From a virus (taxonomy: Duplodnaviria; Heunggongvirae; Uroviricota; Caudoviricetes): DNA of 18,070 nucleotides. Location of the stretch: IMG/VR virus record IMGVR_UViG_2660238548_000002, positions 1-18,070 of that record. The stretch is one strand, 5' to 3'. The translations under genes and the position numbers were made by a program. Below the pieces are notes generated by a model that searched no databases, had not been told where the DNA came from, and worked only from the letters and a program-made list of their open reading frames with translations. Below are positions 1,087 through 18,070 of the stretch, in pieces; within the stretch, counting starts at the first letter, position 1, and every line of letters starts with the position of its first letter.

Positions 1087-1097
1087 ATACACTCCTG

Positions 1098-1119: not shown

Positions 1120-1136
1120 TGTCTGATTCGCGAGGC

Positions 1137-1472: not shown

Positions 1473-1482
1473 CGATATCACC

Positions 1483-1920
1483 TTAACCAGTTACTTTTGA
1501 GCGGATCGGATACGGCGTATTGGCATCAACATCAAGACTGATACCAGCAGTGAATTCGCCAGCCGTTAGTGGGCCAGTTGCGACGGAGTAGTTAACACGC
1601 AGATATCGCTGAACACCGGCAGGCACCTTTGCAGAAACAACTCGTTTACCTGCTGTCAGGGCGGTCTTTGCCAGTGCGCCACTATCATAAATAGTGGTCC
1701 ATGAGCTGTTATTCTCACTCGTCTGCAACTGGATGTTTACAGTTGCATCACCGCTTGCCGCGGCGGCTGTGTTAACCAGCGCCCAAAACTCAAGCGGGTA
1801 ACCCACGCCGATATCACGACGTTTTCCGTCAATTGGACCGAGATCGATTACGTCAGTAGAAGCCGCGGTATTCGTAACCGCCTGAGCTTCGGAGAACATC
1901 AACAGTTTGTCGGTGATCAT
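1483..1920 (-). CDS. Putative capsid-associated structural protein (145 aa, beta-rich; decoration or cement candidate)
   Basis: ATG at 1920 with GGAG 8 nt upstream. Immediately downstream of the major capsid gene; T/S/A/V/G-rich composition. Confidence 0.4.
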   Translation of the reverse strand: MITDKLLMFSEAQAVTNTAASTDVIDLGPIDGKRRDIGVGYPLEFWALVNTAAAASGDATVNIQLQTSENNSSWTTIYDSGALAKTALTAGKRVVSAKVPAGVQRYLRVNYSVATGPLTAGEFTAGISLDVDANTPYPIRSKVTG

Positions 1921-1971
1921 CTTCTTTCTCCATTAGTGGGTCTGTTACGACCCACAGGTTAATAACAGGCG

Positions 1972-2964: not shown

Positions 2965-2972
2965 TTCCTCTC

Positions 2973-3668: not shown

Positions 3669-3670
3669 GA

Positions 3671-3967
3671 TCACTCCTGTTCACTGGCCTCTTTGGCCAT
3701 CTTCAAATACTGTTCAGGGCAATGCGCCATAACGCGCTGAAACAGTTCCAGCGCCAGATTGCGTTGCCCCTCATTAAATGCCATTGCCATAGCGTCCATC
3801 GGCGAGATAGCGGAAAACACACGGCCTTTCTCCAGTACCGACCAGACAACCCGACGCCCCTGTTCACAGCTCATGACAAAGCGAATGTCATCAATTTCAC
3901 GCTGTGCCATGTCACGTTGCTTACGGGCGTTTTCTTCTTTCAGTTGATCGTCTTCGTAATCTGTCAT
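3671..3967 (-). CDS. Hypothetical small head-module protein (98 aa)
   Basis: ATG at 3967 overlaps the portal stop (ATGA); its own stop lies 2 nt before the scaffold ATG. Tightly coupled within the operon. Confidence 0.55.
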   Translation of the reverse strand: MTDYEDDQLKEENARKQRDMAQREIDDIRFVMSCEQGRRVVWSVLEKGRVFSAISPMDAMAMAFNEGQRNLALELFQRVMAHCPEQYLKMAKEASEQE

Positions 3968-5643
3968 TGTGATTGCCCACCCTGACCACTAACTGCATTC
4001 GCCATAGCTGACAAAACACTCGGATCCGAAGTTTTAGCTTCGCTTAGCGTCTTGGCCCCCTGTGCCGCCGCCATCCCCATCGCCATCATTTGTTGCTGCT
4101 GTTGCTGCTGTGCCCGTTGCTGGCGAGCCTGCTCAACCTGTTCCTGCGGAACAATGACGGTTGGAGACACTCCGGACATATCAGCGAATGCATCGATCGC
4201 CTGATCAACGTTGAGTTTGTCGAGAGCTTCTGGTTTCGCTTGCGCAAGTTGACCAATGAAGTTAACCGTGGACGCCAGACTGGACAGGCCGATAGACTTC
4301 TGCGCCTGAGCCATGACGGAAATGTATTCGACCTTCAGGGGCATGCCTTCCATCGCGTCAGGCGGTGGCGGCAGCATGTTTTTACGCACCATCATCGAGA
4401 AAGCGCGGTCAATGAGAGGATTAAGACATTCGTCGTTCAGACGCTCCAGAACCGGCCCCAACATCAGAAGTTTTTCTTCTTTCATTTCGATCACCGCTTC
4501 AACAGGCATCGAGCGGGTATTGATGTTCTGCAACATCATGAACAGATCGACAAAGTAGGCGCTGTTAATGATTTGACGAGTGTCCTGAATGTCTGCCACC
4601 AAATCTGCTGTACTGGGGTTAACCAGATAAGCAGGCCTGAAGCCATCCTGACCAGTAATCTGATCGATATACGTGATGTCGCCAGGAAGAAGGGAGGCGC
4701 GCTGATTCTTGAGGGAAGTCGGAGCAACCATCGGCGGATTGGTGGCTTTATCAATCAACTGCGACTTGCGCTTCTGGAGAAGCTGCAATGCCTTAACAGG
4801 TCCAAGCGCCAGCATGCCCGGGCATGATGATCCATAAACATCTTCACCGTTAACTTCCCAGCGCGGAGCCATAATTGGAAACTCATCGAATCCGGACTCA
4901 CGCAACAACTTGTCGTTATCGCCACCAACCTCGTAATAAACCGATTTGAATGGCTTGTTCTTGCTATCCAGCTTCGATGTATCGCGGTCAATGTTCGGGT
5001 AAACCGAATGCATCACGTCAATCCACTTCTCGTAGGTGCCGCTTTCCCACATGCTTTTTACGGATTCGCTGACGTTATTTAGCCCGAACTCCTGAACAAG
5101 CTGACGAACAGTCATAGAGAACTTGCGAAAACAGGTGTCAACACTGCCACGAGGTGAGTTAGCCAGGTAGTAACTGCCTATCGGGAATGGCATTGTGCGA
5201 ATGATGTCCTCATCATCCTCCAGTACCGCCATTGCACCGGTGCTGTATGTGCCGAGGCTTCCGTATAACTGCGGCAGCGACTGATAGAGATTCGACTTAT
5301 TGAACATATCGTTCATGCGGTTCTGCACCGCCTCAAGCCACAACTTAACAGGGCCATAATCCATCATTTCAGGATCTGGCGTAGCCAGGCGAAACCACGG
5401 ACGCGCAGGGCTTGTGATGCCTGACATCATGCCGCTGGCGAGAGTGCGCGCCGCCATAGTCCCGGTCGAATCAATAATGCGTGTATTGCGCCGATCGTTA
5501 CGGTTGGCCTCAGAAGTCAGAAAGCGGGAACCACGCGGGTTGATGTAATCACTCAACTCGCGCCAGTGCGGCTCGAACGACTGACGCTCGCTTTCAAGTT
5601 GTGCGAACTGTTTGTTCAATCGCTCTTTAGTTGTTTCCGCCAT
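3964..5643 (-). CDS. Portal protein, T7 gp8-like head-to-tail connector
   Basis: 559 aa. N-terminal region and the Gln/Ala/Met-rich C-terminal tail resemble recalled T7 gp8. Sits upstream of scaffold and capsid. Confidence 0.75.
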   Translation of the reverse strand: MAETTKERLNKQFAQLESERQSFEPHWRELSDYINPRGSRFLTSEANRNDRRNTRIIDSTGTMAARTLASGMMSGITSPARPWFRLATPDPEMMDYGPVKLWLEAVQNRMNDMFNKSNLYQSLPQLYGSLGTYSTGAMAVLEDDEDIIRTMPFPIGSYYLANSPRGSVDTCFRKFSMTVRQLVQEFGLNNVSESVKSMWESGTYEKWIDVMHSVYPNIDRDTSKLDSKNKPFKSVYYEVGGDNDKLLRESGFDEFPIMAPRWEVNGEDVYGSSCPGMLALGPVKALQLLQKRKSQLIDKATNPPMVAPTSLKNQRASLLPGDITYIDQITGQDGFRPAYLVNPSTADLVADIQDTRQIINSAYFVDLFMMLQNINTRSMPVEAVIEMKEEKLLMLGPVLERLNDECLNPLIDRAFSMMVRKNMLPPPPDAMEGMPLKVEYISVMAQAQKSIGLSSLASTVNFIGQLAQAKPEALDKLNVDQAIDAFADMSGVSPTVIVPQEQVEQARQQRAQQQQQQQMMAMGMAAAQGAKTLSEAKTSDPSVLSAMANAVSGQGGQSQ

Positions 5644-5657
5644 TTCAATGACTCCGG

Positions 5658-5864
5658 TTACTGACCAAGCAGCGTTTTACCGCTGGTATTAGCGGTTGAT
5701 GTGTCGCCCTGAGAACCGGTAAGAAGCGTAGAACTACGACCAGCAGCAGCGCGACGGCGACGTGTTTCTTCGTCGCGGGCATCAACAACGGCGGCATCCT
5801 GCTCCTGTGGTGCTGCCTGAACTTCTGGTGTTGCAGGCACTGATGGTGAGCTACCCATGCACAT
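5658..5864 (-). CDS. Small Ala/Gln/Arg-rich low-complexity protein (68 aa), possibly an internal virion protein
   Basis: ATG at 5864 with GGAG RBS; stop 12 nt before the portal RBS. Resemblance to T7 gp7.3 is from memory and weak. Confidence 0.4.
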   Translation of the reverse strand: MCMGSSPSVPATPEVQAAPQEQDAAVVDARDEETRRRRAAAGRSSTLLTGSQGDTSTANTSGKTLLGQ

Positions 5865-5932
5865 ATCAATGACTCCGTACGCAATTAAATTATTACCAAT
5901 TTAACCACAAATGATTTACCTATCGTAGATAG

Positions 5933-5969
5933 TTGACATTTAACGCACGAATTATTACCTTTCAGGTAA
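5933..5969 (+). promoter_or_regulatory. Candidate promoter (TTGACA at 5933..5938) with a perfect TTACC-N5-GGTAA palindrome at 5955..5969
   Basis: Perfect -35 hexamer, AT-rich -10 region, and a palindrome identical in form to those at the cI/cro region. Points toward the noncoding region and tRNA. Confidence 0.4.
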
Positions 5970-6029
5970 GCAAAGAGTTCATTCCGGTTATTAACCTGAC
6001 TAGCTTGTCGTTAAATTGAACAGGTGGGG

Positions 6030-6290
6030 TGAGATTTTATTTTGAGCAGTACGGCGTATGGCACATGCGCCGATAGCGGTCTGGATACGTTTAAGGGGCA
6101 CTCTCCCTTGCTCTGGCAAACGAACCAGGTAGCCGGGATGTGCAAGTCGAGCGGTTTTATTCCGCGCACGGGGATTCACCATCCCGGCGATTCGGTGTGA
6201 CACCTCGGAAGAGACGAGGGTACAACGATGAGAGCATTTATGGAACCGCGACAAAGTGTGGCGCCTTAACAGGCTAAGTGCTCTCAGCGT
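6030..6290 (+). ncRNA. Candidate structured noncoding RNA upstream of the tRNA (class unknown)
   Basis: No + strand ORF of 60 aa or more across 5885..6753. Contains a perfect 9-bp stem (GCCGGGATG 6131..6139 / CATCCCGGC 6180..6188) and several further hairpins. Confidence 0.25.
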
Positions 6291-6291
6291 T

Positions 6292-6368
6292 GTGGCATTA
6301 GCTCAGTTGGACAGAGCAACCGCCTTCTAAGCGGCTGGTCGCAGGTTCGAATCCTGCATGCCACGCCA
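6292..6368 (+). tRNA. tRNA-Arg (anticodon UCU), 77 nt with encoded CCA
   Basis: Manual fold: 7-bp acceptor stem GTGGCAT/ATGCCAC, D-arm GCTC...GAGC, anticodon loop CTTCTAA, T-arm GCAGG-TTCGAAT-CCTGC, discriminator G then CCA. Pair 27-43 is an A-C mismatch. Confidence 0.9.
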
Positions 6369-6411
6369 GAATCACGCCTAAGGACCGTGATGCCAGAAGT
6401 TCCAGGTGCTT

Positions 6412-6454
6412 GGCGGTGATGGTTTCCATTGAAGGACTATCACCGCCCTTTTTA
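6412..6454 (+). terminator. Intrinsic terminator downstream of the tRNA
   Basis: GGCGGTGAT ... ATCACCGCC stem followed by CTTTTTA. Confidence 0.5.
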
Positions 6455-6531
6455 CAGCAGGACGCCATTGCGATGACTTCATGCTGTAAACCCGTACAGC
6501 CACGGAAGGCATAACTCATTGCTTACAGTTC

Positions 6532-6555
6532 GCCCGGTTCACCGGGCATTTTTTT
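6532..6555 (+). terminator. Intrinsic terminator
   Basis: GCCCGG-TTCA-CCGGGC hairpin followed by ATTTTTTT. Confidence 0.7.
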
Positions 6556-6614
6556 AAGGTGTGAATCATGAAATACGAATTCGATGGATTTTAATGTCGT
6601 GACACGTCACAAAC

Positions 6615-6642
6615 AGCCAGCCGATAAGCTGGCTTTGTTTTA
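6615..6642 (+). terminator. Intrinsic terminator-like hairpin
   Basis: AGCCAGC-CGATAA-GCTGGCT followed by TTGTTTTA. Confidence 0.45.
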
Positions 6643-6697
6643 TCCTCATCAGAGGATATCAACGACATTATCCCCTCATAGGGATACGTTTTTCATA

Positions 6698-6726
6698 ATG
6701 ACCGAAGATTACCTTAAAGGTAGAAT
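6698..6726 (+). promoter_or_regulatory. Candidate promoter of the 246-aa gene (-10 TAGAAT at 6721..6726) overlapped by an operator-like palindrome TTACC-N5-GGTAG at 6709..6723
   Basis: -10 hexamer about 28 nt upstream of the ATG; a weak -35 (ATGACC) at 17-bp spacing; palindrome lies between them. Confidence 0.4.
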
Positions 6727-6753
6727 CAGAAAAAAACCTAAAAGGGCCTGGAC

Positions 6754-7494
6754 ATGCTTGAATCACTTAAAGAATACCTATCTTCAACCGTTAATACCGC
6801 TTCGCAAAGGGTCAGAAATCCAGTGTTTGGAGCGTTCGCACTGTCATGGTGCGCCTTTAACTGGAAGTCGATTTTATACTTACTCCTCAGCGACTCCAGC
6901 ATCATCGACAAGATCACCTACATTTCCAGCAATAGCAGTTGGAAAACGGTATTAGCATTCCCATGTGTTTCAGCAATAATCCTGTGCGGCGGCATGCCCT
7001 GGATCAACAACGTGATTTCAAAGTGGCAAGCCAAACCTCTTGATAATTACGATTCGATAGAGAACCACCGGAAGGCCAAGCGCATTCATCGCGCCACACG
7101 CCTGCAGCGCCTGAAGGCAAAGCACGATGTGACATACGACAAAGTTAAGACTGGCGCCGAAAAAGACATACAGGCTATGAAGGAAAGAATTACGGAGTCA
7201 CAGGCCAGGATGGGTGAGCTAACGTCGGAAAGAGATAGGCTCTCCGATAAGGTTTTGGAATTGAATAAGAAGCTGGAAAACATGCAATCAGTGGCTGCAG
7301 CGTTAAAGATTGAGGCAGAAAAGTCCGCCAGAATGCTTGAAGATAGGGAGGCCAAAATAAATAATCTCATACAAGAATTAAAGGAAAAAGAAAAGGAAAG
7401 TATCGTATTGCATATGGGCCATGAACCCTTGCGAAAAACATATACATCACAGGCTGAGAGAATGATTGCTGAAGCCGTGAAAAATAAGCAATAA
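6754..7494 (+). CDS. Orphan accessory protein: two predicted TM helices at the N-terminus, a basic linker and a long coiled-coil C-terminus (246 aa); function unknown
   Basis: Opposite strand to the late operon, visibly AT-rich, with many AGA/AGG Arg and ATA Ile codons. Its stop (7492..7494) lies 1 nt from the terL stop (7496..7498). Confidence 0.7.
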   Translation: MLESLKEYLSSTVNTASQRVRNPVFGAFALSWCAFNWKSILYLLLSDSSIIDKITYISSNSSWKTVLAFPCVSAIILCGGMPWINNVISKWQAKPLDNYDSIENHRKAKRIHRATRLQRLKAKHDVTYDKVKTGAEKDIQAMKERITESQARMGELTSERDRLSDKVLELNKKLENMQSVAAALKIEAEKSARMLEDREAKINNLIQELKEKEKESIVLHMGHEPLRKTYTSQAERMIAEAVKNKQ

Positions 7495-7495
7495 A

Positions 7496-8971
7496 TCACG
7501 CAAACGGGTCGTAATCTGTGATGGCCTTGCCTTGCTGGTTCTGCTGACCGGGAATTCGCAGGCGCTTCGACACAGGGAAAGCAAACGTCAGCAATAGCGC
7601 ATCGCCTTTCCCCGGCGAACGCCCAAGTCGTTCTTTGATATCTTCCTTCGGTTCGATAACGATTTTACCGTCCACGCGAACTTTGTACTCTGCCGTCGAC
7701 AGGTCGTCCGCTGTTTCCTGGTCATCCAGCATACCGCCCAGCCTCAGCCATGTCTTACATGAGTTGAACATCTCCCCACGCTTGTTGAGCATCTGCGGGT
7801 CAGTAGACGCGCCACCGAACGGAACAAGTTGCCATGTACGTCCCCAGCCATCACCGATTGACTTCAAACCGGTTCCGTAACCGAAGTCGATGAATACCGC
7901 GTCAGCCTGATACTTGTCTTCAAAGTCAGCGATGCGCTTCGCCATAATCAGATCGTCAGTGGTCTTGTTGCCAGTCCACAGCACCTTACTGTGCAGCCCC
8001 TGCCGCAGGTATATCACAGCGTCATCAACGCCGGAGTATGCCGGGTCAACGCCGATTATCACCGGAGCATGTGCCACCTGCGCAGCAGTTACCACCCGTT
8101 TCATTGCCTCGTCAGTAAGGCCGGTAGGGATAAACTGCAATTCAGATGCATCAGGGAATATGCCGCGCACACGGATTTTAACGAAGTCGCTGTCTTCCCC
8201 GTAGTCATCAACCCATTTCTGCAACTGCTGTTTGTTAGTGCCTTCCACCGTCCGGCTGTCAATCTGCGCAGTTTTCCAGCGGTGTTTATATTTGCGGAAA
8301 CATTCGCGGAAACGTCCGGTATTACGCGTCGGGTTTCCGAACGCCACCCAGATAATCTCAGTGTCTTCGTCCGTAAGCGCCCCCTCGGCAACTTCCCACA
8401 CCAGATCCGCAATGTTCGACGCTTCATCAAACACCACGATGATGCGTTTGCGCTCGTTGTGTAGTCCGGCGAATGCCTCGGTGTTGTGCTCAGACCAGGG
8501 GATTGCGTCAGCTCGCCACCGCTTGTCGTGCCCAGGATCATTGCTGTACATCGCGGTAGCGGTACAGGTAAACCAGTCTTTCGTGATAGCAAGGTTCGAC
8601 CACTTGATAATTTCCGGCCAGGTCTTCGTTCGTAGCTGGTTGTCGGTGTTGGCGGTCACCACGACCTTACAATCCTCGCAAGTGGACATGCCCCAGTTGA
8701 TCAGCATTGAGATGAATGCGGATTTACCAATACCGTGACCAGAAGCGCGTGCCAGCATAAGCGGCTGATAGCGCGTCTCTGGATTCTGCAGGTGATCACG
8801 TATCTCTCGGAACGCATCAGCCTGCCACTGACGTGGGCCGGTAGCATGTGCCAGTTCAGTCCCCTCTTCCCCCCAAGGGAACGCATAGAGGGCATAGCCA
8901 AGCGGATCGTGAGTGAACCCTGCAATATCCTCGATTAACTGCTCTTCAGGAGATAACGCTGTATCTGTCAC
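7496..8971 (-). CDS. Terminase large subunit
   Basis: 491 aa with Walker A-like SGHGIGKS near the N-terminus and a C-terminal nuclease-like region. GTG start overlaps the terS stop (GTGA); immediately downstream of terS. Confidence 0.85.
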   Translation of the reverse strand: MTDTALSPEEQLIEDIAGFTHDPLGYALYAFPWGEEGTELAHATGPRQWQADAFREIRDHLQNPETRYQPLMLARASGHGIGKSAFISMLINWGMSTCEDCKVVVTANTDNQLRTKTWPEIIKWSNLAITKDWFTCTATAMYSNDPGHDKRWRADAIPWSEHNTEAFAGLHNERKRIIVVFDEASNIADLVWEVAEGALTDEDTEIIWVAFGNPTRNTGRFRECFRKYKHRWKTAQIDSRTVEGTNKQQLQKWVDDYGEDSDFVKIRVRGIFPDASELQFIPTGLTDEAMKRVVTAAQVAHAPVIIGVDPAYSGVDDAVIYLRQGLHSKVLWTGNKTTDDLIMAKRIADFEDKYQADAVFIDFGYGTGLKSIGDGWGRTWQLVPFGGASTDPQMLNKRGEMFNSCKTWLRLGGMLDDQETADDLSTAEYKVRVDGKIVIEPKEDIKERLGRSPGKGDALLLTFAFPVSKRLRIPGQQNQQGKAITDYDPFA

Positions 8972-9564
8972 TGATTGCCATCCTGACGTTCTTTGAGTCG
9001 CTTCCTGGCTGCTGCTATGCGATCAGCAATTGTCACATTCACATTAACATCCAAGCGTTCTTTGAATGCGTTGACGTCGACGTGCTTACCAATCAGTTCG
9101 AGGTTCTTCACCTTGTCAGGCCATTTAATTTTTTTGAGGATTGTCTCTATCGAATCCTCGTTCATGTTCATGATGGTCGATGACAGATCAAAGCCGCTAA
9201 GCGTAGTGCGCCAGATTTTCGGCCACTCACGGATTGGTTTAAGGCTCCCATCGTCGTTGAGGATGTCGATCACGTCCATCTGGTCGATCTCCACTAGGCG
9301 CATGAGAACGTAATCAGCACTGACGCGCATTCGTTTGTTGCGCTCCTCCATCAACTCGGCAATCCGTTTTTGAATGCGTTCATCGCGCATCATGACACTG
9401 GCTTTAACTGCCGCTGTATTTGGGGAGAATCCTGCGTTAATCGCTGCCTGAGTCTGGTTTTCAGGCGTTTTGATGTATGACTGGCAATAAGCCTCCTGCA
9501 TTGCTGTGAGCGGCTTAAATTGCGTTGATTTGCGTTTATAGGTTTTAGGTTCAGCAGGCATCAT
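8968..9564 (-). CDS. Terminase small subunit
   Basis: Family-typical N-terminal LTAMQEAYCQSY...NAGFSPNTAAVKAS. Start placed at ATG 9564 (GGTGG upstream); the listed ORF's further extension (TITTTVTITT) runs through a terminator and repeats. Confidence 0.75.
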   Translation of the reverse strand: MMPAEPKTYKRKSTQFKPLTAMQEAYCQSYIKTPENQTQAAINAGFSPNTAAVKASVMMRDERIQKRIAELMEERNKRMRVSADYVLMRLVEIDQMDVIDILNDDGSLKPIREWPKIWRTTLSGFDLSSTIMNMNEDSIETILKKIKWPDKVKNLELIGKHVDVNAFKERLDVNVNVTIADRIAAARKRLKERQDGNQ

Positions 9565-9571
9565 AACCACC

Positions 9572-9602
9572 GTGGTAATAGTTACCGTTGTGGTAATAGT
9601 AA
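9572..9602. repeat. Two 13-bp direct repeats GTGGTAATAGT(T/A)A 18 bp apart, just upstream of the terS start
   Basis: Read directly from the sequence; the first copy forms the palindrome GGTAATAGTTACC. Candidate packaging or regulatory site. Confidence 0.5.
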
Positions 9603-9606
9603 CATG

Positions 9607-9633
9607 CAAAATAAAGCCGCCATAGTTGGCGGC
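9607..9633 (-). terminator. Intrinsic terminator immediately upstream of terS
   Basis: On the minus strand: GCCGCCA-ACTA-TGGCGGC followed by TTTATTTTG, in the 75-bp gap between the 70-aa gene and terS. Confidence 0.65.
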
Positions 9634-9638
9634 AGTAT

Positions 9639-9851
9639 TCAAAGTCCATCAAATTCATCGTAAAAACTCTCGTCAAGATACCCTTCCCATTTACCGCGAA
9701 TGAAAATTACATCCTCGCCGCAAGGGTGCTGACTGTCGATAACTATATCCCTCCTGGCGCAACCATACTTATGCATGAGAAATTTAACCTCTTTCGGAAA
9801 ATTTGCTGAGTTATCTCTCATATCTTCAAGGTCGTAGCGTATTTTTGGCAT
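9639..9851 (-). CDS. Hypothetical small protein (70 aa)
   Basis: ATG at 9851 with GAGGTG RBS directly upstream; the listed ORF extends to 9866. Confidence 0.5.
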   Translation of the reverse strand: MPKIRYDLEDMRDNSANFPKEVKFLMHKYGCARRDIVIDSQHPCGEDVIFIRGKWEGYLDESFYDEFDGL

Positions 9852-9867
9852 AACACCTCGTGACATG

Positions 9868-10206
9868 TCACACTATTAATTTCGTTTCATGCCAGCCTTT
9901 GGTCACCCAGCATTGCGAGTCACCATTACACGGGCATGAATTCACAGGAACTCTCTCGCCGCACTTACCGCAACGTTTTCTGCTGATCGATTTTATACGC
10001 CCGCGCACGCGTGCATCATCCTGGCGGATCAGTAACGCTATATACTCACCAAATTCGTAAGGCGCACGCCCGGGGCGACGTGTGGCACAGTTACGCTCCA
10101 GCATTTCAATTTCCTGAGCATCAAGCACAATCTCCAGCTTACGTACACCGGATTCAGCTTGTCTGGCTCTCTGAGCGGCTTTGCGCTCTGCTGCTGATTT
10201 AGCCAT
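9868..10206 (-). CDS. Hypothetical protein (112 aa) with a basic N-terminus and a C-terminal Cys4 zinc-ribbon (CGKCG...CPC)
   Basis: ATG at 10206, 2 nt after the upstream stop. Function unknown; a regulatory role is only a guess from position. Confidence 0.5.
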   Translation of the reverse strand: MAKSAAERKAAQRARQAESGVRKLEIVLDAQEIEMLERNCATRRPGRAPYEFGEYIALLIRQDDARVRGRIKSISRKRCGKCGERVPVNSCPCNGDSQCWVTKGWHETKLIV

Positions 10207-10480
10207 CAATATTCACCTTTATCGCGAACACCTTTACCGGTTTATCGCCGAAGTGGGGATGTGTGATTGTCTTGATTTCATATCCGTCATACGGAATATC
10301 AATTCTGCGGCTGGAATCGTCGCGCTTCGGATATCCCTTTGTGATAATCAGGCGGTCATACTCCCGGAACATAATTCGCTTATTCCAATAGTCATTACAC
10401 AGGCGATACTCCTCGGTTTTCTCGCCACGAATCATGGCATCGAAGTATTCACCTTTTACGGCAAGTTGCAGGTTAGCCAC
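10199..10480 (-). CDS. ASCH/DUF3850-like small protein (93 aa)
   Basis: GTG start with AGGAGG 7 nt upstream. N-terminal LQLAVKGEYFDAMIRGEKTEEYR resembles the recalled DUF3850/ASCH pattern. Confidence 0.45.
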   Translation of the reverse strand: MANLQLAVKGEYFDAMIRGEKTEEYRLCNDYWNKRIMFREYDRLIITKGYPKRDDSSRRIDIPYDGYEIKTITHPHFGDKPVKVFAIKVNIDG

Positions 10481-10757
10481 GACCTTCCTCCTTTGGCTTG
10501 TGAATTTGTATCGTCATGCCGCTTTGAGTGGTGACTACAATGACAGAACCAGGCTGAAGGCTGTTAAGATTGAATGCTTCGTAAAACGAATCCAATGCCA
10601 GTGCTTTTTTATTCTTTCGGTTCCACCAACGCCATCCCTTGCTACAGGCTACACTGACAATCCACTGCCCACTCCTGTAAGCCATATAAAACCAGATGAG
10701 CAAAACCTGAAGGAAGGCCATCCAGTCAATAATCGTATATTTCGCGAAGGAGTCCAT
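10473..10757 (-). CDS. Small membrane protein (94 aa) with one hydrophobic helix
   Basis: ATG at 10757 overlaps the upstream TGA (TGATG) and has a strong AGGAGGT RBS. Hydrophobic segment YTIIDWMAFLQVLLIWFYMAY. Confidence 0.55.
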   Translation of the reverse strand: MDSFAKYTIIDWMAFLQVLLIWFYMAYRSGQWIVSVACSKGWRWWNRKNKKALALDSFYEAFNLNSLQPGSVIVVTTQSGMTIQIHKPKEEGRG

Positions 10758-11329
10758 CAATTCACCTCCTGCGGCGGTTCTGGTAGCGGCATCCAGAACA
10801 AGACGTTCCCTAACCACGATAAAGTGCCGTCGCTCAACTCCACGTATTCCCCTTGTACCTGTCCTGCCATATACTCGCCGTGCTTTGAATAAATTAAAAT
10901 CCAATCATCTTGAGCGGGCATTCGCTCACTACAGCTTATCCAACCATCCGGAGTTACCGGAGAGTTGCCCGATAGCTCGTTCAACTTGTAAGTCTGGCTT
11001 ACAAGTTCGGCTTCCAATTCTGCTATGCGCTTCTCTGATGCTTCCAGCTCAACACGCAGCTTCCCTACCGTTAGCGCAATATCCTCGTTCTCCTGGTCGC
11101 GGCGTTTGATGTATTGCTGGTTTCTTTCCCGTTCATCCAGTAGTGCCAGCACGGTTTCTGGTCCGGCCAGAAGTTTGAAGGCGTTGAGCGCATCAATATC
11201 CACACCGTAATCTTTAAGTTCCTGTTCACTTAACAAATCATCATCAACTGGCAACATTAACAGGCGTTCCATTGCCGGAATTGCACGTTCTGCCGCCATT
11301 CGCAGTGCCTGATAGTCAATCTTGCTCAC
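10757..11329 (-). CDS. Ea22/Ead-like protein with a C-terminal DUF551-type domain (190 aa)
   Basis: GTG start with AAAGGAGG RBS. C-terminal W...FWMPLPEPP resembles the DUF551 signature common in lambdoid early regions. Confidence 0.5.
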   Translation of the reverse strand: MSKIDYQALRMAAERAIPAMERLLMLPVDDDLLSEQELKDYGVDIDALNAFKLLAGPETVLALLDERERNQQYIKRRDQENEDIALTVGKLRVELEASEKRIAELEAELVSQTYKLNELSGNSPVTPDGWISCSERMPAQDDWILIYSKHGEYMAGQVQGEYVELSDGTLSWLGNVLFWMPLPEPPQEVN

Positions 11330-11982
11330 TGGTTGCCTCCTTTTCGAAGCTCTGCGGCAAAGTCAGTGGCATGTTCACCGAGTAGTTTCCAGTTATCGCG
11401 TATATCAGATGCAAATGACTGTTCGGATTTTGAGTTACATTTCTGTGCAAACATCTCCAATCCCTGCGCCCGCACTTCAGCCAGGCATTTGCGAAACTCG
11501 GAAACGTACTGTTCGACGCTCATTCCCCAGCTAAGTGGACATTCATTGAATGTTTCGCCTTCGTGCTCTTCATCAGGTAGCTCTTTGGTAAAGAACTCAC
11601 GCTCAATGGCGTGGAGTGTGTCAGCAAAACGACGTAAGTTACTCAAACCTACCGTAATGGAGAATTCAGGAGCATCACATCCGACGCCCATCTGCTGATA
11701 AACGGCGGTTTTGAAGGCCTTCAGCGCCGCATTCTCCGCTGCCAGCTCCGAAAACTTCTCGTGTGCCAACTTAACAGCTGCATCAGCCTGCTTAATTGAC
11801 TCAATCGCTTTCTGCTGGTCTTCGGCCAGCGCATTAGCACGCACCAGTTGCACTTCCAGTTGCGTTGCCAAATCGCTGATCAGCTTTGCCACGCTGCGCA
11901 TATCAACGGCACCACATTCTGCTTTCAGTTCCGAAGCCATCTCATGCCCGGCGGTAACTAACCCTTTGATATTACAGTCCAT
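11326..11982 (-). CDS. Hypothetical coiled-coil protein (218 aa)
   Basis: ATG at 11982 with GAGGG RBS. No recognisable domain. Confidence 0.5.
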   Translation of the reverse strand: MDCNIKGLVTAGHEMASELKAECGAVDMRSVAKLISDLATQLEVQLVRANALAEDQQKAIESIKQADAAVKLAHEKFSELAAENAALKAFKTAVYQQMGVGCDAPEFSITVGLSNLRRFADTLHAIEREFFTKELPDEEHEGETFNECPLSWGMSVEQYVSEFRKCLAEVRAQGLEMFAQKCNSKSEQSFASDIRDNWKLLGEHATDFAAELRKGGNQ

Positions 11983-12027
11983 CTTTACCCTCGCTTATCC
12001 ACATAACTTATTGATTACATTGATAAC

Positions 12028-12055
12028 TAAAAAGATCGTCGATTCATGCCGATCT
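12028..12055 (-). terminator. Possible intrinsic terminator overlapping the HNH gene stop
   Basis: AGATCG ... CGATCT stem flanked by an A-tract and a T-tract; the 11-nt loop makes it weak. Confidence 0.3.
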
Positions 12056-12652
12056 ATTTTTCATCAGTGATTCATAAAACTTTTGCCACTTATGCCGACC
12101 GAAATTAGCCTTCGAGTTACAGCTCGAACAAAGGCAAATAAGGTTCTCCTGACGACAGTCTTGCTTGTCGTAATTGATGTGATGAGTTGTTAGCCTTTTG
12201 TCTGTTCCATCACAACCTGGGTTCTGACAAGTAAAACCATCTCGCTCAATAACCCTCTTGCTCGTTTCTCGGAAATCCCACGGATACGGCAATCTCGATA
12301 ATCCACCAGACCAGTTTGGATTTCCTTCCCCCTTCATCAGAGAAGAACGCATTATGTTGGAACACTGTTTCGAGCAGCATTTATGACGCTTCTCATGACT
12401 CAAGAAAACGGAGAACGAAGATCCGCATACGCAGCATATTTTTAATACTCGCTTTAGTTCCCGATTTACCGTCTTGCCTCGCTGTGAAATTCCTACACAC
12501 TGAAGTGAGCAGAACCTTGAAGATGAGTTGGCTCGCTTAACCTGATATTGCCTGCCACATACGGGGCAAACCTTTTCGATTTTCCCACCCTTCCAATTCG
12601 GGTTTTTATCACCGGATACAATCAATCCCGCAGCATTGGGCTTCTCGCTCAT
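12044..12652 (-). CDS. HNH homing-type endonuclease with duplicated NPNW(K/S)GG modules (202 aa)
   Basis: C-terminal HHINYDK...ENLICLCSSCN is an HNH motif; two NPNWxGG repeats. AT-rich. ATG at 12652 overlaps the upstream stop (ATGA). Confidence 0.8.
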   Translation of the reverse strand: MSEKPNAAGLIVSGDKNPNWKGGKIEKVCPVCGRQYQVKRANSSSRFCSLQCVGISQRGKTVNRELKRVLKICCVCGSSFSVFLSHEKRHKCCSKQCSNIMRSSLMKGEGNPNWSGGLSRLPYPWDFRETSKRVIERDGFTCQNPGCDGTDKRLTTHHINYDKQDCRQENLICLCSSCNSKANFGRHKWQKFYESLMKNRSA

Positions 12653-13002
12653 AGTTCCTCAACCTCCCATCCACCACCGAGCTTTTTAGGTTTTGGATAA
12701 GCAACCTGAAAGACAAACGGATAGCTGTCTGCCGCAACCTTCATCTTGACTCTCGCATCGTCAGTAAAGACTGACTTACTTCCCTTAACGTCCACCATCA
12801 CCAACTGCCCGTCAGCCAACATCACGGCAAAATCTACAGTCAGGAAGCAGTTGTCAGCCAGCCGCAGCTTGATACCCTCGAACCGATACCAGGCGACTTC
12901 CCCTGCACGTTTACGCTGCTCAAGGTGCTGGCAATACGCAGATTCTGTTTTGTTCATCTGGCCTGTTTTGAGTCGACCAAGAGCCTGTATCTGTTTTCTC
13001 AT
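12649..13002 (-). CDS. DUF1064-like phage protein (117 aa)
   Basis: Pattern ...YRFEGIKLRLADNCFLTVDFAVM...VDVKG resembles recalled DUF1064. Translationally coupled to the HNH gene. Confidence 0.45.
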   Translation of the reverse strand: MRKQIQALGRLKTGQMNKTESAYCQHLEQRKRAGEVAWYRFEGIKLRLADNCFLTVDFAVMLADGQLVMVDVKGSKSVFTDDARVKMKVAADSYPFVFQVAYPKPKKLGGGWEVEEL

Positions 13003-13005
13003 GAT

Positions 13006-13082
13006 TTACCTCTAAGGTAATTAAAAACCACATAAGGCACAAAATCAATAGATCTAAGAATATTTTGTTACCCATTGGGTAA
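13006..13082. promoter_or_regulatory. Two perfect TTACC-N5-GGTAA palindromes (13006..13020 and 13068..13082) upstream of the DUF1064 gene
   Basis: The first palindrome starts 4 nt upstream of the ATG and contains the RBS; the second lies about 60 bp further upstream. Confidence 0.5.
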
Positions 13083-13119
13083 TTATTGAGGCGTAAAAAA
13101 ATGCGCTATCGCGCTGGTA

Positions 13120-13920
13120 TTACTTGATAAATCCTGCTGCCTTTCCTCGCCTGTATTCCTCCATCAGCCACTGCGCCGGTGTTATTCCCCCCAGGGTGGC
13201 GGCGTTAGGCATGCACCCGAAACTTCGCCCTGGTGGATGGTAAACGTCTCTCCCTGTGTCCGGAGGTGTACTCATGGGTTCTGGCTTTGCCTGTATGCTG
13301 ATCACCGGATCGGGTATCTGCTGTCCGGAAGCCACCTTTTTCGCCCAATCATCGAGCAACCTGCGCGCGTGTTTCTCAACCTCAATCTCGCTAAGCTGGC
13401 GCTGATACATTGCACGGCGGGTATCACATACGACCCAGTACATAACCGGATGTCGCCACGGGAATCTTTCGGGACCACCAGGATATAAACTTTTTTCCTT
13501 GCTGTACCGGTGAAACTCCGCCATCACATCGTCAATGGTGACGCCAAGAACCATCTTGCTGTCTTTACACCACTTGATGAATTGCCCTGGCGACGGCCAG
13601 AACGGAGATTCACTGGCGCGGGCGTGGCGCATACCAGCAGAAACCTGTTCACGGGTTCGGATCCCCCCTTCGGCAAACGCAGCAATCCACTGCTGTTTTG
13701 CAGCAACTTCCTGCTCTGGCGTCTTCAGGTTGGTTACCACTGCCGCCGGAAACAGTTGTTTCAGCTGTTTGAAAAGGGCATCAACAAGCCTCTCTGCTGA
13801 CATGTTCACCACGTTGTCATTGTTGGTGTACTGATGCTCATAACCTGACATGCGAGAAAGGGCTTCTCCGTCACGGTTTTGTATCGCGGTAAAAACGTTG
13901 TTCACAAGAAATCCTCCCAT
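13120..13920 (-). CDS. Lambda P-like replication protein (helicase loader)
   Basis: Central QWIAAFAEGGIRTREQVSAGMRHAR...PFWPSPGQFIKWC aligns with the recalled lambda P region RRQWVLAFRENGITTMEQVNAGMRVAR...PFLPSPGQFVAWC. Strong GGAGGA RBS. Confidence 0.8.
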   Translation of the reverse strand: MGGFLVNNVFTAIQNRDGEALSRMSGYEHQYTNNDNVVNMSAERLVDALFKQLKQLFPAAVVTNLKTPEQEVAAKQQWIAAFAEGGIRTREQVSAGMRHARASESPFWPSPGQFIKWCKDSKMVLGVTIDDVMAEFHRYSKEKSLYPGGPERFPWRHPVMYWVVCDTRRAMYQRQLSEIEVEKHARRLLDDWAKKVASGQQIPDPVISIQAKPEPMSTPPDTGRDVYHPPGRSFGCMPNAATLGGITPAQWLMEEYRRGKAAGFIK

Positions 13921-14717
13921 GCTTCAGGGCTGTTCCAGTGCGGAACGTTGTTATCAGGTAATGTTGATTGCTTCTGTCTGCTAATCTGCAGCCGCCTTGC
14001 CAGCTTCTGCTCCCACTGTGCCTGATGGTATGCCTTACCCTCAGCCATCCAGTAAATTCTGAACTCTGCAAGTTCCTGTGCCGTTGGCAGACTGTCCAGG
14101 TAGATCCCCTGCAATGAGCTTTTCCGAAGAAAGTCATCTGATGGTTGCCATTGTTCATGCATGACAAATTTGCCTAATTGCCCTGGCCCACCAGGAGGAA
14201 CAAAGTTATTCATCACGGCGTTGTTTGCGCCGGGGTCATGAGGCACAGAATCCCCGGTTTTTGTTCTGCTCTCCCTCTCTTGGTTAAATGACTGGTTATA
14301 TGACTGGTTCTGGATCCCGTTTTTGGGATCATTCAACATCCCGTTTTTGGGATCATTCAACATCCCGTTTTTGGGTATATTCCCGTTTTCGGTAACATTA
14401 CCGTTTTCGGGTTCATTACCCCCTTCCCGGTTGCCTTTAATGTTCCCGTTTTTGGTTATATTAAGAGAGAAAACCCGCACTCTTTTCGTCGCTCCCTTTC
14501 TCTCTCCGGTATCTGAAATAAGCCCCATTTTCATGAGCGATATAAGCCCGGACTGCACGGTTTTTTTATTCAGGCAAGTGTCTTTAACGAGGCGTTCTAT
14601 GCTGGGGTAGCAGAGGTTATATTCATCGGCTCTGTCAGCCATCGAGAGCAGTATGAGCTTTAATGATGAGCTACCTGGGTCTGTCTCCCAGGCCCAATCT
14701 GTTGCATGTCTGCTCAT
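13902..14717 (-). CDS. Replication initiator, O-like (N-terminal HTH, repeat-encoded linker)
   Basis: Lies upstream of and overlapping the P-like gene; iterons are embedded in the coding sequence and encode the tandem KNGMLNDP repeat. Confidence 0.65.
   Translation of the reverse strand: MSRHATDWAWETDPGSSSLKLILLSMADRADEYNLCYPSIERLVKDTCLNKKTVQSGLISLMKMGLISDTGERKGATKRVRVFSLNITKNGNIKGNREGGNEPENGNVTENGNIPKNGMLNDPKNGMLNDPKNGIQNQSYNQSFNQERESRTKTGDSVPHDPGANNAVMNNFVPPGGPGQLGKFVMHEQWQPSDDFLRKSSLQGIYLDSLPTAQELAEFRIYWMAEGKAYHQAQWEQKLARRLQISRQKQSTLPDNNVPHWNSPEAWEDFL
14314..14460. repeat. Origin-type iterons: two perfect 24-bp tandem copies (ATCCCGTTTTTGGGATCATTCAAC) plus about 4 degenerate copies of the CCCGTTTT(T)GG core
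   Basis: Read directly from the sequence. Each unit contains an ATCCC/GGGAT inverted repeat; the array lies inside the O-like gene as in lambda ori. Confidence 0.75.
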
Positions 14718-14732
14718 GATTAATCTCCGCTA

Positions 14733-14933
14733 TCAGCTTGAATGTTGTGGGGAGGAATTAATCATGATCTGCTTAATCTCTGCCCTGATGCGACGGTTTG
14801 ATTCCATGGTGCACTCAACACAGTGTCCGTTGTAAACCCAGCGTTCACTGTCATGTCCGTGCTTACATGATTTTCCGGTGTAGTAGCGTTTAAGTCCGCG
14901 CTTTGCGGCATCAATACGTGTAATGATTTCCAT
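14733..14933 (-). CDS. Small Cys/His-rich zinc-finger protein (66 aa) in the cII position
   Basis: ATG at 14933; motif CKHGHD...HCVEC. Sits between the cro-like gene and the O-like gene; function unknown. Confidence 0.4.
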   Translation of the reverse strand: MEIITRIDAAKRGLKRYYTGKSCKHGHDSERWVYNGHCVECTMESNRRIRAEIKQIMINSSPQHSS

Positions 14934-15037
14934 GGTAAGCCCTGTTATTAGTATTGGGATTACGGTTATTTTGTGCTGACACAAAAAAAAGATCAACCAG
15001 ATTTGGTTTTTTATTACCTTTAAGGTGCGAATAGATA

Positions 15038-15061
15038 TGAAAAGACCGCAGGATGGCGGTC
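15038..15061 (-). terminator. tR1-like intrinsic terminator downstream of the cro-like gene
   Basis: On the minus strand: GACCGC-CATCCT-GCGGTC followed by TTTTC. Position matches lambda tR1. Confidence 0.4.
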
Positions 15062-15083
15062 TACAGAGGTTTGTGGCTGGATA

Positions 15084-15314
15084 TCATGAGTAGAAGAAGT
15101 ATGCCAGTTCTGCTTTTGAGCGCAGCCATTGTCTTGTTTTACAGGCTTTAAAAAGCCCATTCATCAATACTTTACCTGGCATTTTGCGCTTACCTGTTAA
15201 GTGAGTCTGGATATAGTGACTCGTCGTTCCGGCTTCCTGTGCGAAGGCTTCACGCTCATCCGGAGTAAGTGCAAGCCAGTGCTTTTTGAAATCGAAATGT
15301 CCGTTATCGCTCAT
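15084..15314 (-). CDS. Cro-like HTH regulator (76 aa)
   Basis: Divergent from the repressor gene and first gene of the rightward-equivalent operon. HTH-like segment LTPDEREAFAQEAGTTSHYIQ. Confidence 0.6.
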   Translation of the reverse strand: MSDNGHFDFKKHWLALTPDEREAFAQEAGTTSHYIQTHLTGKRKMPGKVLMNGLFKACKTRQWLRSKAELAYFFYS

Positions 15315-15350
15315 AGCTATTGCCTGATATTTATTTCAGATAATAAATAT

Positions 15351-15413
15351 TCACCCATAAGGTAACAAAAATCAAGGATAGTTACCTATGGGGTGCATTT
15401 ACCTGTTGGGTAA
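15351..15413. promoter_or_regulatory. Divergent immunity promoter region with three operator-like sites (15351..15365, 15382..15396, 15399..15413)
   Basis: Lies between the divergent cro-like and cI-like starts. Three TTACC-N5-GGTAA family palindromes, echoing an OR1-OR3 layout. Confidence 0.6.
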
Positions 15414-15468
15414 TATTGCTTTAAATTGAATCATCTACTGATTCATATATGAGGCGATTCTCCAGAAA

Positions 15469-16053
15469 ATGAAAAGTATCCAGGACGTCCGCAGGCAAAA
15501 TCTCAACGACTTGATCGACCGTGAATTCAATGGTGTTCAGACGCGGATGGCAGAAAAACTTGGAACTCAGGCAAATCTGGTAAACCGCTGGGCTCTTGGC
15601 AAGAAGGTTATCGGCGACCAGGTTGCGCGAAAAATTGAAGCTGCCGCCAATAAACCCCGTAACTGGCTTGATATCGATCGCTCGCTTTCTCAGGAGGGGT
15701 TTCAGCCTGTCGGCCCAAGCGACATTGGTCAGCTGGCGGCTCACAACCTGGAACGCTGGATGAGCGAAAGCCGCGACCTTTCAACACAGGGAAAACTTCA
15801 CCGCGCATCCGGCGTCGCCCAGGTGACAATCAGCCGCCTGTTAAACAATGAGGTCAGTGTTTCCATTTCCACCCTGGAGAATGTTGCATCCGCATTCGGG
15901 CGTCACGGATATGAACTACTGATTCACCCGCACGACCCTGCGACTATCAACTATGACCGCTCGCGCTACGCATTGTTACCCGAAACCGAGAAAGCAAAGA
16001 TCGAAAGTTACATTGAATTTGTCATCAACCAGAACGAAAAAAACAAACAATAA
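15469..16053 (+). CDS. CI-like repressor with two HTH (XRE-type) domains and no S24 peptidase domain (194 aa)
   Basis: Two HTH-like segments (residues about 20..60 and 95..150). Divergent from cro and followed by a strong terminator. Confidence 0.65.
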   Translation: MKSIQDVRRQNLNDLIDREFNGVQTRMAEKLGTQANLVNRWALGKKVIGDQVARKIEAAANKPRNWLDIDRSLSQEGFQPVGPSDIGQLAAHNLERWMSESRDLSTQGKLHRASGVAQVTISRLLNNEVSVSISTLENVASAFGRHGYELLIHPHDPATINYDRSRYALLPETEKAKIESYIEFVINQNEKNKQ

Positions 16054-16075
16054 AATCATATTTTTCAGTAAGTAA

Positions 16076-16097
16076 GCCGCCTTCTGGCGGCTTTTTT
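16076..16097 (+). terminator. Intrinsic terminator after the repressor gene
   Basis: GCCGCC-TTCT-GGCGGC followed by TTTTTT. Confidence 0.85.
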
Positions 16098-16110
16098 ATT
16101 GCCTGTTCAA

Positions 16111-16187
16111 TTACCTAATGGGTAATTTTTTTAACTCATATCTATTGACATCAAACCAGATACGCATAATTATTACCTAAACGGTAA
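16111..16187 (+). promoter_or_regulatory. pL-like early promoter (TTGACA at 16145..16150) flanked by two perfect TTACC-N5-GGTAA operators (16111..16125 and 16173..16187)
   Basis: Perfect -35 hexamer and AT-rich -10 region; one operator upstream and one overlapping the start region, upstream of the + strand early genes. Confidence 0.55.
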
Positions 16188-16206
16188 CAGACCGAGGTAA
16201 CAAGTT

Positions 16207-16359
16207 ATGCAGTGGAAAATCATCAACGGTTGGTACTGCGTTACTGCATGCGGATTCATGAGCTGGAAGTTCCGCACCTTACAGGAAGGCATTAAGTGGG
16301 CTTTCGTCAGCAAAGAAGCTCGCGATGTGGCCAACGATAACGAGATATGGGAGGGATGA
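16207..16359 (+). CDS. Small Trp/Cys-rich protein (50 aa), first ORF of the leftward-equivalent early operon
   Basis: ATG at 16207 with GAGG upstream; below the ORF-track size cutoff, translated by hand as MQWKIINGWYCVTACGFMSWKF... Confidence 0.35.
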   Translation: MQWKIINGWYCVTACGFMSWKFRTLQEGIKWAFVSKEARDVANDNEIWEG

Positions 16360-16361
16360 TA

Positions 16362-16661
16362 ATGAACGTTAATCAGCAGAAAAATCTTCAAAAAATCATG
16401 CTGGCATTCGACAAGGACTACCGCCTGTCAGAACAGCTATATGACCGACAAGTTGAACTGATTGAGAGTATCCGGCTTCACCAACTGGCCTCAACTTTCG
16501 ACGTTGTAACAGGCAAAGGCGTTCGTCAGGAAGTGCTGGAGGCTGCTAAAGACAGCCCTGAGTTCGAAGAACTGATGGATGCCTACCGGCGCGAGGCAAT
16601 GGCAATTATCGCCCGCTGGGATCTGGCGGATCGGATTGATGGGCAGAGGGAAGCGGCATGA
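16362..16661 (+). CDS. Hypothetical early protein (99 aa)
   Basis: ATG at 16362 with GGAGGG 6 nt upstream; stop overlaps the exonuclease start (ATGA). The listed ORF starts at 16347. Confidence 0.55.
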   Translation: MNVNQQKNLQKIMLAFDKDYRLSEQLYDRQVELIESIRLHQLASTFDVVTGKGVRQEVLEAAKDSPEFEELMDAYRREAMAIIARWDLADRIDGQREAA

Positions 16662-17557
16662 TGCAGAACGCTGGAATCATGGATAGAACAAAATACATCG
16701 GAGGAAGCGATGTTGCAGGGATTCTTGGAATTAGCCCATGGCGCACCCCGCTTGAGGTTTATCTGGATAAGGTCAAGCCACGTGTCAAACCAGTAGACCC
16801 AAGCAAGCAGAAAGTTTTCACGCGTGGCCAGCGTATGGAGCCATACGTAATAGACCTGCTTTCTGAGGAAACAGGGATGGAAATCGTTCATCGCGGAAAC
16901 CGCTATATCCACCGTGATTACGATTTTATTGCAGCTGAGATCGATGCAGAAGCAGCGTCAGGCGAGAACATTGAGATCAAAACAGTTAGTCCGTTCAAAG
17001 CCAAAGAATGGGGAGAAATCCAGACAGATGCAATTCCTGTGCATTACACGGCCCAGGCCATGCACGGGTTGATGGTTACAAACAAACAGGCATGCGTTTT
17101 CGGTGTGCTTATCGGTGGTGACGACTTCCGAATCTATCGGGTTGAGCGTGATGAAGAAACTATCCAGGCGATCTTAGAAAAAGAAATCGCTTTCTGGGAC
17201 CGAGTGAAAAATCTTAACCCGCCGGAAGCTACCAGCGTAAGCGATGTATCGCTGATGTTTGAGAAAGATGCCGGGACAAGTATCGAGGCTGACGGAAAGG
17301 CACTCGCACTATTCAACGATCTACGAGACATGAAGTCACGCAGAAAATCACTGGAAGAAGAAATAGCTATATCAGAAGAGAAGCTGAAGATGTACATGCA
17401 AGAGCACTCAGTCCTGACCCTGGACGGAAAGCCGCTCTGCACATGGAAATCTCAGATCAGCAACAGATTCGACCAGAAGCTATTCCAGTCAGTACACCCT
17501 GAGTTATTCGAAAAATTCAAAACAACAACGACACAACGCGTCTTCAGAATGAAGTAA
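16658..17557 (+). CDS. YqaJ-type viral recombination exonuclease
   Basis: N-terminal YIGGSDVAGILGISPWRTPLEVY matches the YqaJ signature. Immediately upstream of a RecT-family gene. Confidence 0.8.
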   Translation: MMQNAGIMDRTKYIGGSDVAGILGISPWRTPLEVYLDKVKPRVKPVDPSKQKVFTRGQRMEPYVIDLLSEETGMEIVHRGNRYIHRDYDFIAAEIDAEAASGENIEIKTVSPFKAKEWGEIQTDAIPVHYTAQAMHGLMVTNKQACVFGVLIGGDDFRIYRVERDEETIQAILEKEIAFWDRVKNLNPPEATSVSDVSLMFEKDAGTSIEADGKALALFNDLRDMKSRRKSLEEEIAISEEKLKMYMQEHSVLTLDGKPLCTWKSQISNRFDQKLFQSVHPELFEKFKTTTTQRVFRMK

Positions 17558-17566
17558 GGAGAAAAA

Positions 17567-17983
17567 ATGTCTATCAATGCACTTAAGGCAGCGGCTACCG
17601 GTAACCAAGTTGCACATCATAATGAGAAACCAACAACTCTGGCCGGACTTCTGGCAGACCCAAAAATTAAAGCTCAGATGGCTTTGGCACTTCCAAAGCA
17701 CATGACAGCAGACCGTCTGGCGCGCATAGCAACCACAGAGATCCGAAAGGTTCCAAAACTTGCATCATGCGACCAAGCCAGCTTCCTGGGGGCAATTATG
17801 CAATGTGCCCAATTGGGTCTTGAACCAGGCGGAGCTCTTGGACACGCTTACCTGATACCGTTCGACAAACGCCAGAAAGTAAATGGAAGATGGGAAACCG
17901 TATCTACAGAAGCACAGCTGATTATCGGCTATCGCGGAATGATTGAACCGCCCCGGGTTTCCTGGAGAGTATTTTATCTGTGA
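17567..17983 (+). CDS. RecT-family single-strand annealing protein, C-terminally truncated (138 aa; last ~13 codons read from unrelated repeat sequence)
   Basis: Strong RBS TAAGGAG. LGAIMQCAQLGLEPG...AYLIPF...IIGYRGMI are RecT-like, but homologs are about 270 aa. The reading frame leaves RecT-like sequence at about 17943 where the inverted repeat begins. Confidence 0.65.
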   Translation: MSINALKAAATGNQVAHHNEKPTTLAGLLADPKIKAQMALALPKHMTADRLARIATTEIRKVPKLASCDQASFLGAIMQCAQLGLEPGGALGHAYLIPFDKRQKVNGRWETVSTEAQLIIGYRGMIEPPRVSWRVFYL

Positions 17984-18070
17984 ACTCAGGCTGCCAGATC
18001 ATTATTTCCGATGGAAGCATAATAAGCTTTTTCTGCTTCTGCCGGAGGAATATGGCCCAGCCTTTCCAGC
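17944..18070. repeat. Right copy of the ~127-bp inverted repeat (reverse complement of 1..127)
   Basis: Direct comparison with the window start; contains an RBS and ATG at 18052. Confidence 0.85.
18052..18070 (+). CDS. 5' fragment (MAQPFQ...) of an outward-reading gene homologous to the one at the window start
   Basis: ATG at 18052 preceded by GGAGG. Parallels the MTQPSQ start at 19..1 on the minus strand. Confidence 0.3.

Follow-up and report, generated by a model that had tools for sequence, protein, structure and literature searches.

Truncation of recT by an IS629 End in a Fragment of a phiV10-Like Prophage

Introduction

The window considered here is a stretch of 18,070 nucleotides from a tailed virus, analysed at its full length. 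Close to its right edge, a gene for a RecT-family protein breaks off after 138 codons, and its last codons resemble the sequence with which the window begins. What cut the gene, and why are the two ends of the window alike? A sequence-only reading placed the truncation near position 17943 and ascribed it to illegitimate recombination, by which the early operon was joined to a tail-gene module. Comparison with intact and interrupted relatives points instead to the insertion sequence IS629.

The Truncated recT Gene and Its Exonuclease Partner

The chimeric recT open reading frame (17567–17983, plus strand) encodes 138 aa, comprising RecT residues 1–126 and 12 residues encoded by IS629. Its native part (17567–17943, plus strand) covers codons 1–125 and two nucleotides of codon 126. 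Aligned with the 340-aa RecT that intact relatives encode, the product shows no difference over residues 1–126 and departs from it in its last 12 residues (EPPRVSWRVFYL), so identity extends only through residue 126 and the proposed truncation point holds. The 12 foreign codons are read from the right inverted repeat of IS629, and the stop codon lies within the element. The product is recognized by the Pfam RecT profile (PF03837) with 67.6 bits against a gathering score of 24; the match covers profile positions 2–67 of 198 (66 positions), compared with 2–187 for a full-length relative, and the domain is thus incomplete. Judging by its sequence, the 138-aa product is a fragment of a RecT gene and not a functional member of the family.

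The YqaJ-family recombination exonuclease encoded upstream (16658–17557, plus strand; 299 aa; Pfam YqaJ, 83.7 bits; phrog_434) is intact, as the sequence-only reading had stated. Its gene ends 9 nt before the recT start, and the protein is residue-identical to the copies adjoining full-length recT in four related prophages (L026–L029). Since about two thirds of the RecT annealing domain is missing, the YqaJ/RecT recombination pair is very probably non-functional, and the earlier suggestion of an inactivated recombination module would still stand.

Identity of the Window Ends

Positions 17944–18070 are the reverse complement of positions 1–127, with 8 mismatches in 127 nt. The likeness of the last recT codons to the start of the window, remarked on earlier, is therefore real; its attribution to an adaptor-tail intergenic region is not, since the shared sequence is the end of IS629 and the tail genes overlap. 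The recT junction resembles the window start because a second, inverted copy of IS629 is situated there.

The left arm (1–127, plus strand) belongs to an IS629 copy that extends leftward out of the window, and represents the right end of that copy. It matches the IS629 of phage JLK-2012 at 100% identity and the annotated IS629 of VT2-Sakai at 96.8%. Frame 2 of positions 2–85 reads LGRLGHIPPAEAEKAYYASIRNDDLAA followed by a stop, which is the C-terminus of OrfB, the DDE transposase (last 27 codons at 2–82, stop at 83–85); the 25-bp right inverted repeat occupies 103–127 and ends in ...GGTTCA. The right arm (17944–18070, minus strand) is the right end of a second variant in inverted orientation, with its body to the right of the window. 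Its inverted repeat lies at 17944–17968 and its OrfB C-terminus at 18069–17989 (stop at 17988–17986, minus strand). This arm shares 95.3% identity with Sakai IS629 and 100% with a 1310-bp copy from E. coli O157:H7 PV15-279; that copy carries the annotation "IS3 family transposase, programmed frameshift", and its OrfB contains the domains rve, rve_2, rve_3 and HTH_21. The PV15-279 copy (L001, 672–3647) is located in a different prophage, between a truncated exonuclease pseudogene and an excisionase gene, and that locus exemplifies a recombination module with an IS629-associated deletion.

IS629, with the synonyms and variants IS1203, IS1203v and IS3411, is a 1310-bp element of the IS3 family, and its 25-bp terminal repeat begins with TGAACCGCCCCGG. 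Elements of this kind carry orfA and orfB with a programmed -1 frameshift, OrfB containing a DDE (rve) integrase core. Both arms terminate in the 5'-TG...CA-3' manner of IS3-type elements (...CCGGGGCGGTTCA on the left, TGAACCGCCCCGG... on the right), the window holding right-end repeats only. The feature annotated as "inverted repeat from right end of IS629" in VT2-Sakai (AP000422) ends exactly at the arm tip, and phage records label the arm sequence "insertion sequence:IS629", "IS629 transposase" or "IS1203v". Identity to reference IS629 is 95–100% over the 127 nt present. Sister contigs run 243–371 nt beyond the recT junction into a gene fragment; in L003 the match to IS629 reaches 371 nt, and the fragment matches rve_2 and rve_3.

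The arms are also multi-copy and mobile sequences. Among 5,426 complete E. coli genomes, about 4,000 contain matches to them, at 23,848 places for the right arm and 24,792 for the left (4,084 genomes), and IS629 is found at about 24,000 places in 4,003 of the 5,426. The number of arm matches per genome has a median of 2–3 and a maximum of 49, about 4,400–4,600 places are on plasmids, and all E. coli matches are annotated "IS3 family transposase". By sequence, both window ends are the inward-pointing right ends of IS629 copies belonging to different sequence variants. IS629 subtypes are reported to differ by 55–60 bp (PMC3271280), and the 8 mismatches in 127 nt between the arms fit this divergence. 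A tectivirus-like or linear-plasmid terminal repeat, an invertible tail-fibre segment of the Gin/Cin type and a hairpin assembly artefact were rejected as sources of the terminal repeats, since the arms are plain IS629 ends.

The Empty Site and the recT Junction

The uninterrupted form of the site is present in two prophages (L026 and L029), which have no mismatches to the window up to 17946 and carry the 340-aa recT. Over 7.3 kb, L026 differs from the window solely by one 24-nt repeat unit. In both prophages recT is followed by an HTH gene, PerC, MT-A70 methylase, DUF1382, integrase and guaA. At the junction, the native sequence GGAATGAT|TGACCTTGCC is replaced in the window by GGAATGAT|TGAACCGCCCC. 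Homology to intact recT ends at 17946 and IS629 starts at 17944; the start is placed there because the letters TGA happen to be common to native DNA and the IS tip.

The right junction is spanned in none of the 5,426 complete E. coli genomes, the best matches ending at 17946, and the exact 31-nt strings across the right and left junctions gave no match in the viral, genome or metagenome contig collections. The recT::IS629 junction is present in independent isolate and metagenome assemblies, each such contig ending inside the IS (53, 243, 330 or 371 nt from the junction).

Three slightly divergent exo-recT alleles (L004, L005 and L006 against window 16368–17996) share the identical junction and the 138-aa product. 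The differences are silent at 17744 or 17797, several fall in the exonuclease gene and one is in the IS at 17971. Either an old insertion was spread by prophage recombination or one site was hit repeatedly. A JGI metagenome contig of 1414 nt (P0133) encodes a 140-aa RecT fragment which is identical to I126 and then continues with FHCITCYLGLLPLR; perhaps another element occupies the recT site there, or the contig is chimeric.

The Two Halves of recT in Sister Assemblies

The sequence-only reading had advised looking downstream for the missing RecT C-terminus, and it was found directly beyond the repeat in sister assemblies, followed by the remaining early-left operon, integrase and guaA. N-terminal partial RecT of 125 aa stands at the ends of 66 contigs. 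C-terminal partial RecT stands at contig ends with lengths of 214, 215 and 211 aa (62, 6 and 2 contigs, respectively), and across the two halves the residues are complete (125 + 215 = 340). Four pairs of GenBank accessions hold one half each: EED0283502/EED0284604, EEQ4771175/EEQ4769873, EEQ7192464/EEQ7192185 and EEQ8115997/EEQ8113434. In all four visible pairs the N- and C-terminal fragments appear to come from the same genome, as read from accession-number blocks and sister assemblies rather than from a single closed genome.

On the C-terminal side, contigs L032 and L033 start with ATTGACC and TTGACC (recT codon 126) and run through HTH, PerC, MT-A70, DUF1382 and integrase to guaA. On the N-terminal side, the flank reads ...GGAATGAT up to the IS, and one N-side contig ends at the equivalent of window position 17942. 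At least "AT" is therefore common to both flanks, each junction being read from a separate sequence. Judged from these letters, the shared "AT" would be consistent with duplication of a GAT target; a target duplication of 3–4 bp is reported for IS629 (PMC3271280).

The split halves of recT with no residue missing, together with the native end of the operon past the IS, identify the event in the sister assemblies as a simple IS insertion and not as a fusion between the early operon and a tail module. The flanks lie on different contigs, the IS being a collapsed repeat.

The Insertion in the Tail Gene

At the left end, IS629 cuts a gene for an 823-aa tail protein (phrog_376), of which the first 31 nt (10 codons and 1 nt) remain at 128–158 on the minus strand. 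The adjacent gene for a 202-aa tail protein (phrog_394; 158–766, minus strand), the "adaptor" of the sequence-only reading, is intact. The empty site is found in prophage L020, which is 99.84% identical over window positions 128–17470 (4 mismatches in 17.3 kb) and carries an intact 823-aa tail gene. Its alignment breaks at 127/128, which places the left IS629 31 nt inside this gene. In intact relatives the 201/202-aa and 823-aa tail genes overlap (ATGA) and no intergenic spacer separates them.

A 32-aa chimeric ORF at the left junction returned no record on look-up, and ten possible C-terminal fragments of the 823-aa tail protein, taken from the L020 allele, were absent from the collection. 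The left end of the IS629 element offers no in-frame start codon from which a fused C-terminal ORF could be predicted. Among the N-side contigs with the recT insertion, many are 20–431 kb long and run beyond the left IS site, so the left insertion appears to be a later, separate event in the sub-lineage of the window itself. The split tail gene would render this copy of the prophage defective.

Prophage Context

Window positions 128–16664 are 97–98% identical to phages of the phiV10/PAS61/TL-2011b type across the tail, capsid, portal, terminase, replication and immunity genes, and phiV10-like phages match the window only from 128 onward.

The DnaT-like/HTH_36 replication gene (13902–14717, minus strand) contains four copies of a 24-nt unit (ATCCCGTTTTTGGGATCATTCAAC and variants) at 14314–14421, which by their sequence resemble replication-origin iterons. 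L026 and L020 have one unit more; this extra unit, the sole indel that sets them apart from the window, accounts for a protein of 279 instead of 271 aa.

A tRNA-Arg gene (anticodon TCT; 6292–6368, plus strand) lies between the portal and terminase regions. It adjoins a variable moron ORF of 246 aa (6754–7494), where relatives carry different genes. Positions 9660–12850 are mosaic (Ead/Ea22, DUF551, DUF4752 and hypothetical proteins), and otherwise 97–99% identical prophages have unrelated gene sets there. Replacement of gene sets is typical of the nin-like region in phiV10-like phages. The 70-aa protein encoded at 9639–9851 is very common, and its look-up gave unrelated long contigs only.

The sister contigs L003 and L034 (JBBUZD010000042.1 and ABZFYR010000050.1; about 28.5–29.3 kb), which carry the recT insertion, all start about 10.6–10.9 kb beyond the left junction of the window. 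These start points suggest another repeat or an assembly break near the tailspike/antirepressor end of the prophage.

Proposed Course of Events

With high confidence, IS629 transposed into recT of a phiV10-like (Uetakevirus) prophage situated by guaA in E. coli, and a second variant later hit the tail gene, only 127 nt of each element being included in the window. The element (1310 bp, with a DDE transposase made by programmed frameshift) would have gone in directly behind 17943, the last native base, its transposase genes running antisense to recT. That insertion proceeded by DDE transposition is taken from the established biology of the IS3 family. The recT frame would then run 12 codons into the right inverted repeat and stop there, giving the 138-aa product. 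The C-terminal 214–215 codons of recT should be kept beyond the IS, with the remainder of the early-left operon, integrase and guaA after them, an arrangement visible in sister assemblies and extended here to the genome of the window. On the far side of this copy, GAT-TGACCTTGCCCGCC is expected, that is, recT from codon 126 onward. The second variant would have followed later, in inverted orientation and 31 nt inside the 823-aa tail gene, leaving a defective prophage.

The window consists of the 17.8 kb between the two IS629 copies and exactly 127 nt of each. Arms of this length are probably what a de Bruijn assembler with k = 127 leaves at the ends of contigs that reach a multi-copy repeat. 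Most likely, the window is a 17.8-kb part of a phiV10-like prophage on a draft contig that was broken at repeated IS copies.

Alternative Explanations

The two inverted copies could have recombined with each other, or an IS-mediated inversion or deletion could have taken place, in which case the neighbours beyond the IS in this particular genome would be non-native. A pair of inverted copies separated by 17.8 kb offers a substrate for inversion, and nothing was recovered beyond either IS for the source genome. IS629-mediated deletions are common, as at the PV15-279 locus, where the IS629-truncated exonuclease gene is joined to xis, and matching target duplications are kept at only 21 of 47 IS629 sites in O157 (PMC3271280). 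However, the 8 differences between the arms show that neither is a recent copy of the other, each arm is cleanly one variant with no sign of a hybrid within its 127 nt, and about 70 sister assemblies have a simple recT insertion. Such a rearrangement is considered unlikely.

It is distinctly improbable that the recT position is a preferred IS629 target, or that the bracketed 17.8-kb segment behaves like an invertible element or a composite transposon. In favour of a preferred target are the junction shared to the nucleotide by the three allele backgrounds, the break of P0133 after the same residue, and a loose resemblance of the native letters beyond the recT cut (TGACCTTGCCCGCCGC) to the IS629 tip (TGAACCGCCCCGG).

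An assembly artefact, through contig chimerism or inverted repeats created at the contig ends, would mean that the junction does not exist in the cell. The arms are indeed exactly 127 nt long, a common maximum k-mer size, and lie at the extreme ends of the window. Yet independent assemblies from different pipelines have the same junction to the residue and proceed to different depths in the IS, complementary recT halves stand at contig ends in dozens of genomes, and the arms, being no more than 94% alike, are not the k-mer overlap of one sequence. An artefact is therefore very improbable.

For the fusion of mid-recT to an adaptor-tail intergenic region, which would have joined the early operon to a tail module, speaks the inverted match of 17944–18070 to positions 1–127 beside the tail genes. 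Against it, these 127 nt are absent from that place in all phiV10-like phages and intact prophages, homology starting at 128; they are an IS629 end with thousands of occurrences in E. coli; at the tail-gene site of intact relatives there is no intergenic region; and in sister genomes the recT C-terminus lies directly past the repeat. The sequence after 17943 being the right end of IS629, illegitimate recombination between the modules, as first proposed, has hardly any probability left.

A natural short RecT ending in EPPRVSWRVFYL has a practically negligible chance: although GenBank lists a protein of exactly this 138-aa sequence under the name "recombination and repair protein RecT" (GCH79211.1), and 6 contigs from at least 4 assemblies (isolate and metagenome) encode it, its last 12 residues and stop are encoded by the IS629 inverted repeat, it covers 66 of 198 Pfam profile positions, and the best 120 homologues in a search of 5.8 billion proteins are 263–358 aa long, none being naturally as short as 138 aa or a short homologue with the same C-terminus, which the sequence-only reading had named as the sign of a natural variant.

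The preferred reading thus remains that of two IS629 insertions, and it describes ordinary biology that was known before. Insertions of IS629 have been amply documented in E. coli prophages and serve for strain typing. Terminal inverted repeats of k-mer length that match thousands of places mark a draft contig broken at IS copies, and they are no evidence of rearrangement between phage modules. In this strain, the two insertions predict the loss of RecT-dependent recombination and of a tail gene, and hence a defective prophage.

Comparison with Known Systems

The backbone of the window is that of the temperate podophages of the phiV10/PAS61/TL-2011b type (genus Uetakevirus), which reside as prophages by guaA; prophages such as UTME-12 and L026 add the same YqaJ-RecT module. 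The window differs from Uetakevirus prophages by its two IS629 insertions, in recT and in the large tail gene. The gene order, exonuclease and then RecT, is that of RecT/YqaJ (RecET-like) annealing modules, but only 126 of the 340 residues of the annealing protein precede the cut.

Two inverted IS copies bracketing a stretch of DNA recall the architecture of composite transposons such as Tn10 and Tn5, in which both IS copies and the cargo move as a unit, with one target duplication outside the outer ends. In contrast to these, the two insertions here appear to be sequential and independent, many sister contigs with the recT insertion running more than 20 kb past the left site, and the cargo is a fragment of a prophage.

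The IS629 copies of VT2-Sakai, VT1-Sakai and other O157:H7 Stx prophages share with the arms the terminal sequence TGAACCGCCCCGG..., the 25-bp right repeat and the OrfB C-terminus. Nothing of substance distinguishes the arms from Sakai-type IS629; only the insertion sites, codon 126 of recT and codon 11 of the 823-aa tail gene, are specific to the lineage. In O157 genomes, 62% of IS629 copies are located in prophages (PMC3271280), and the prophage location found here is that of most copies of this element.
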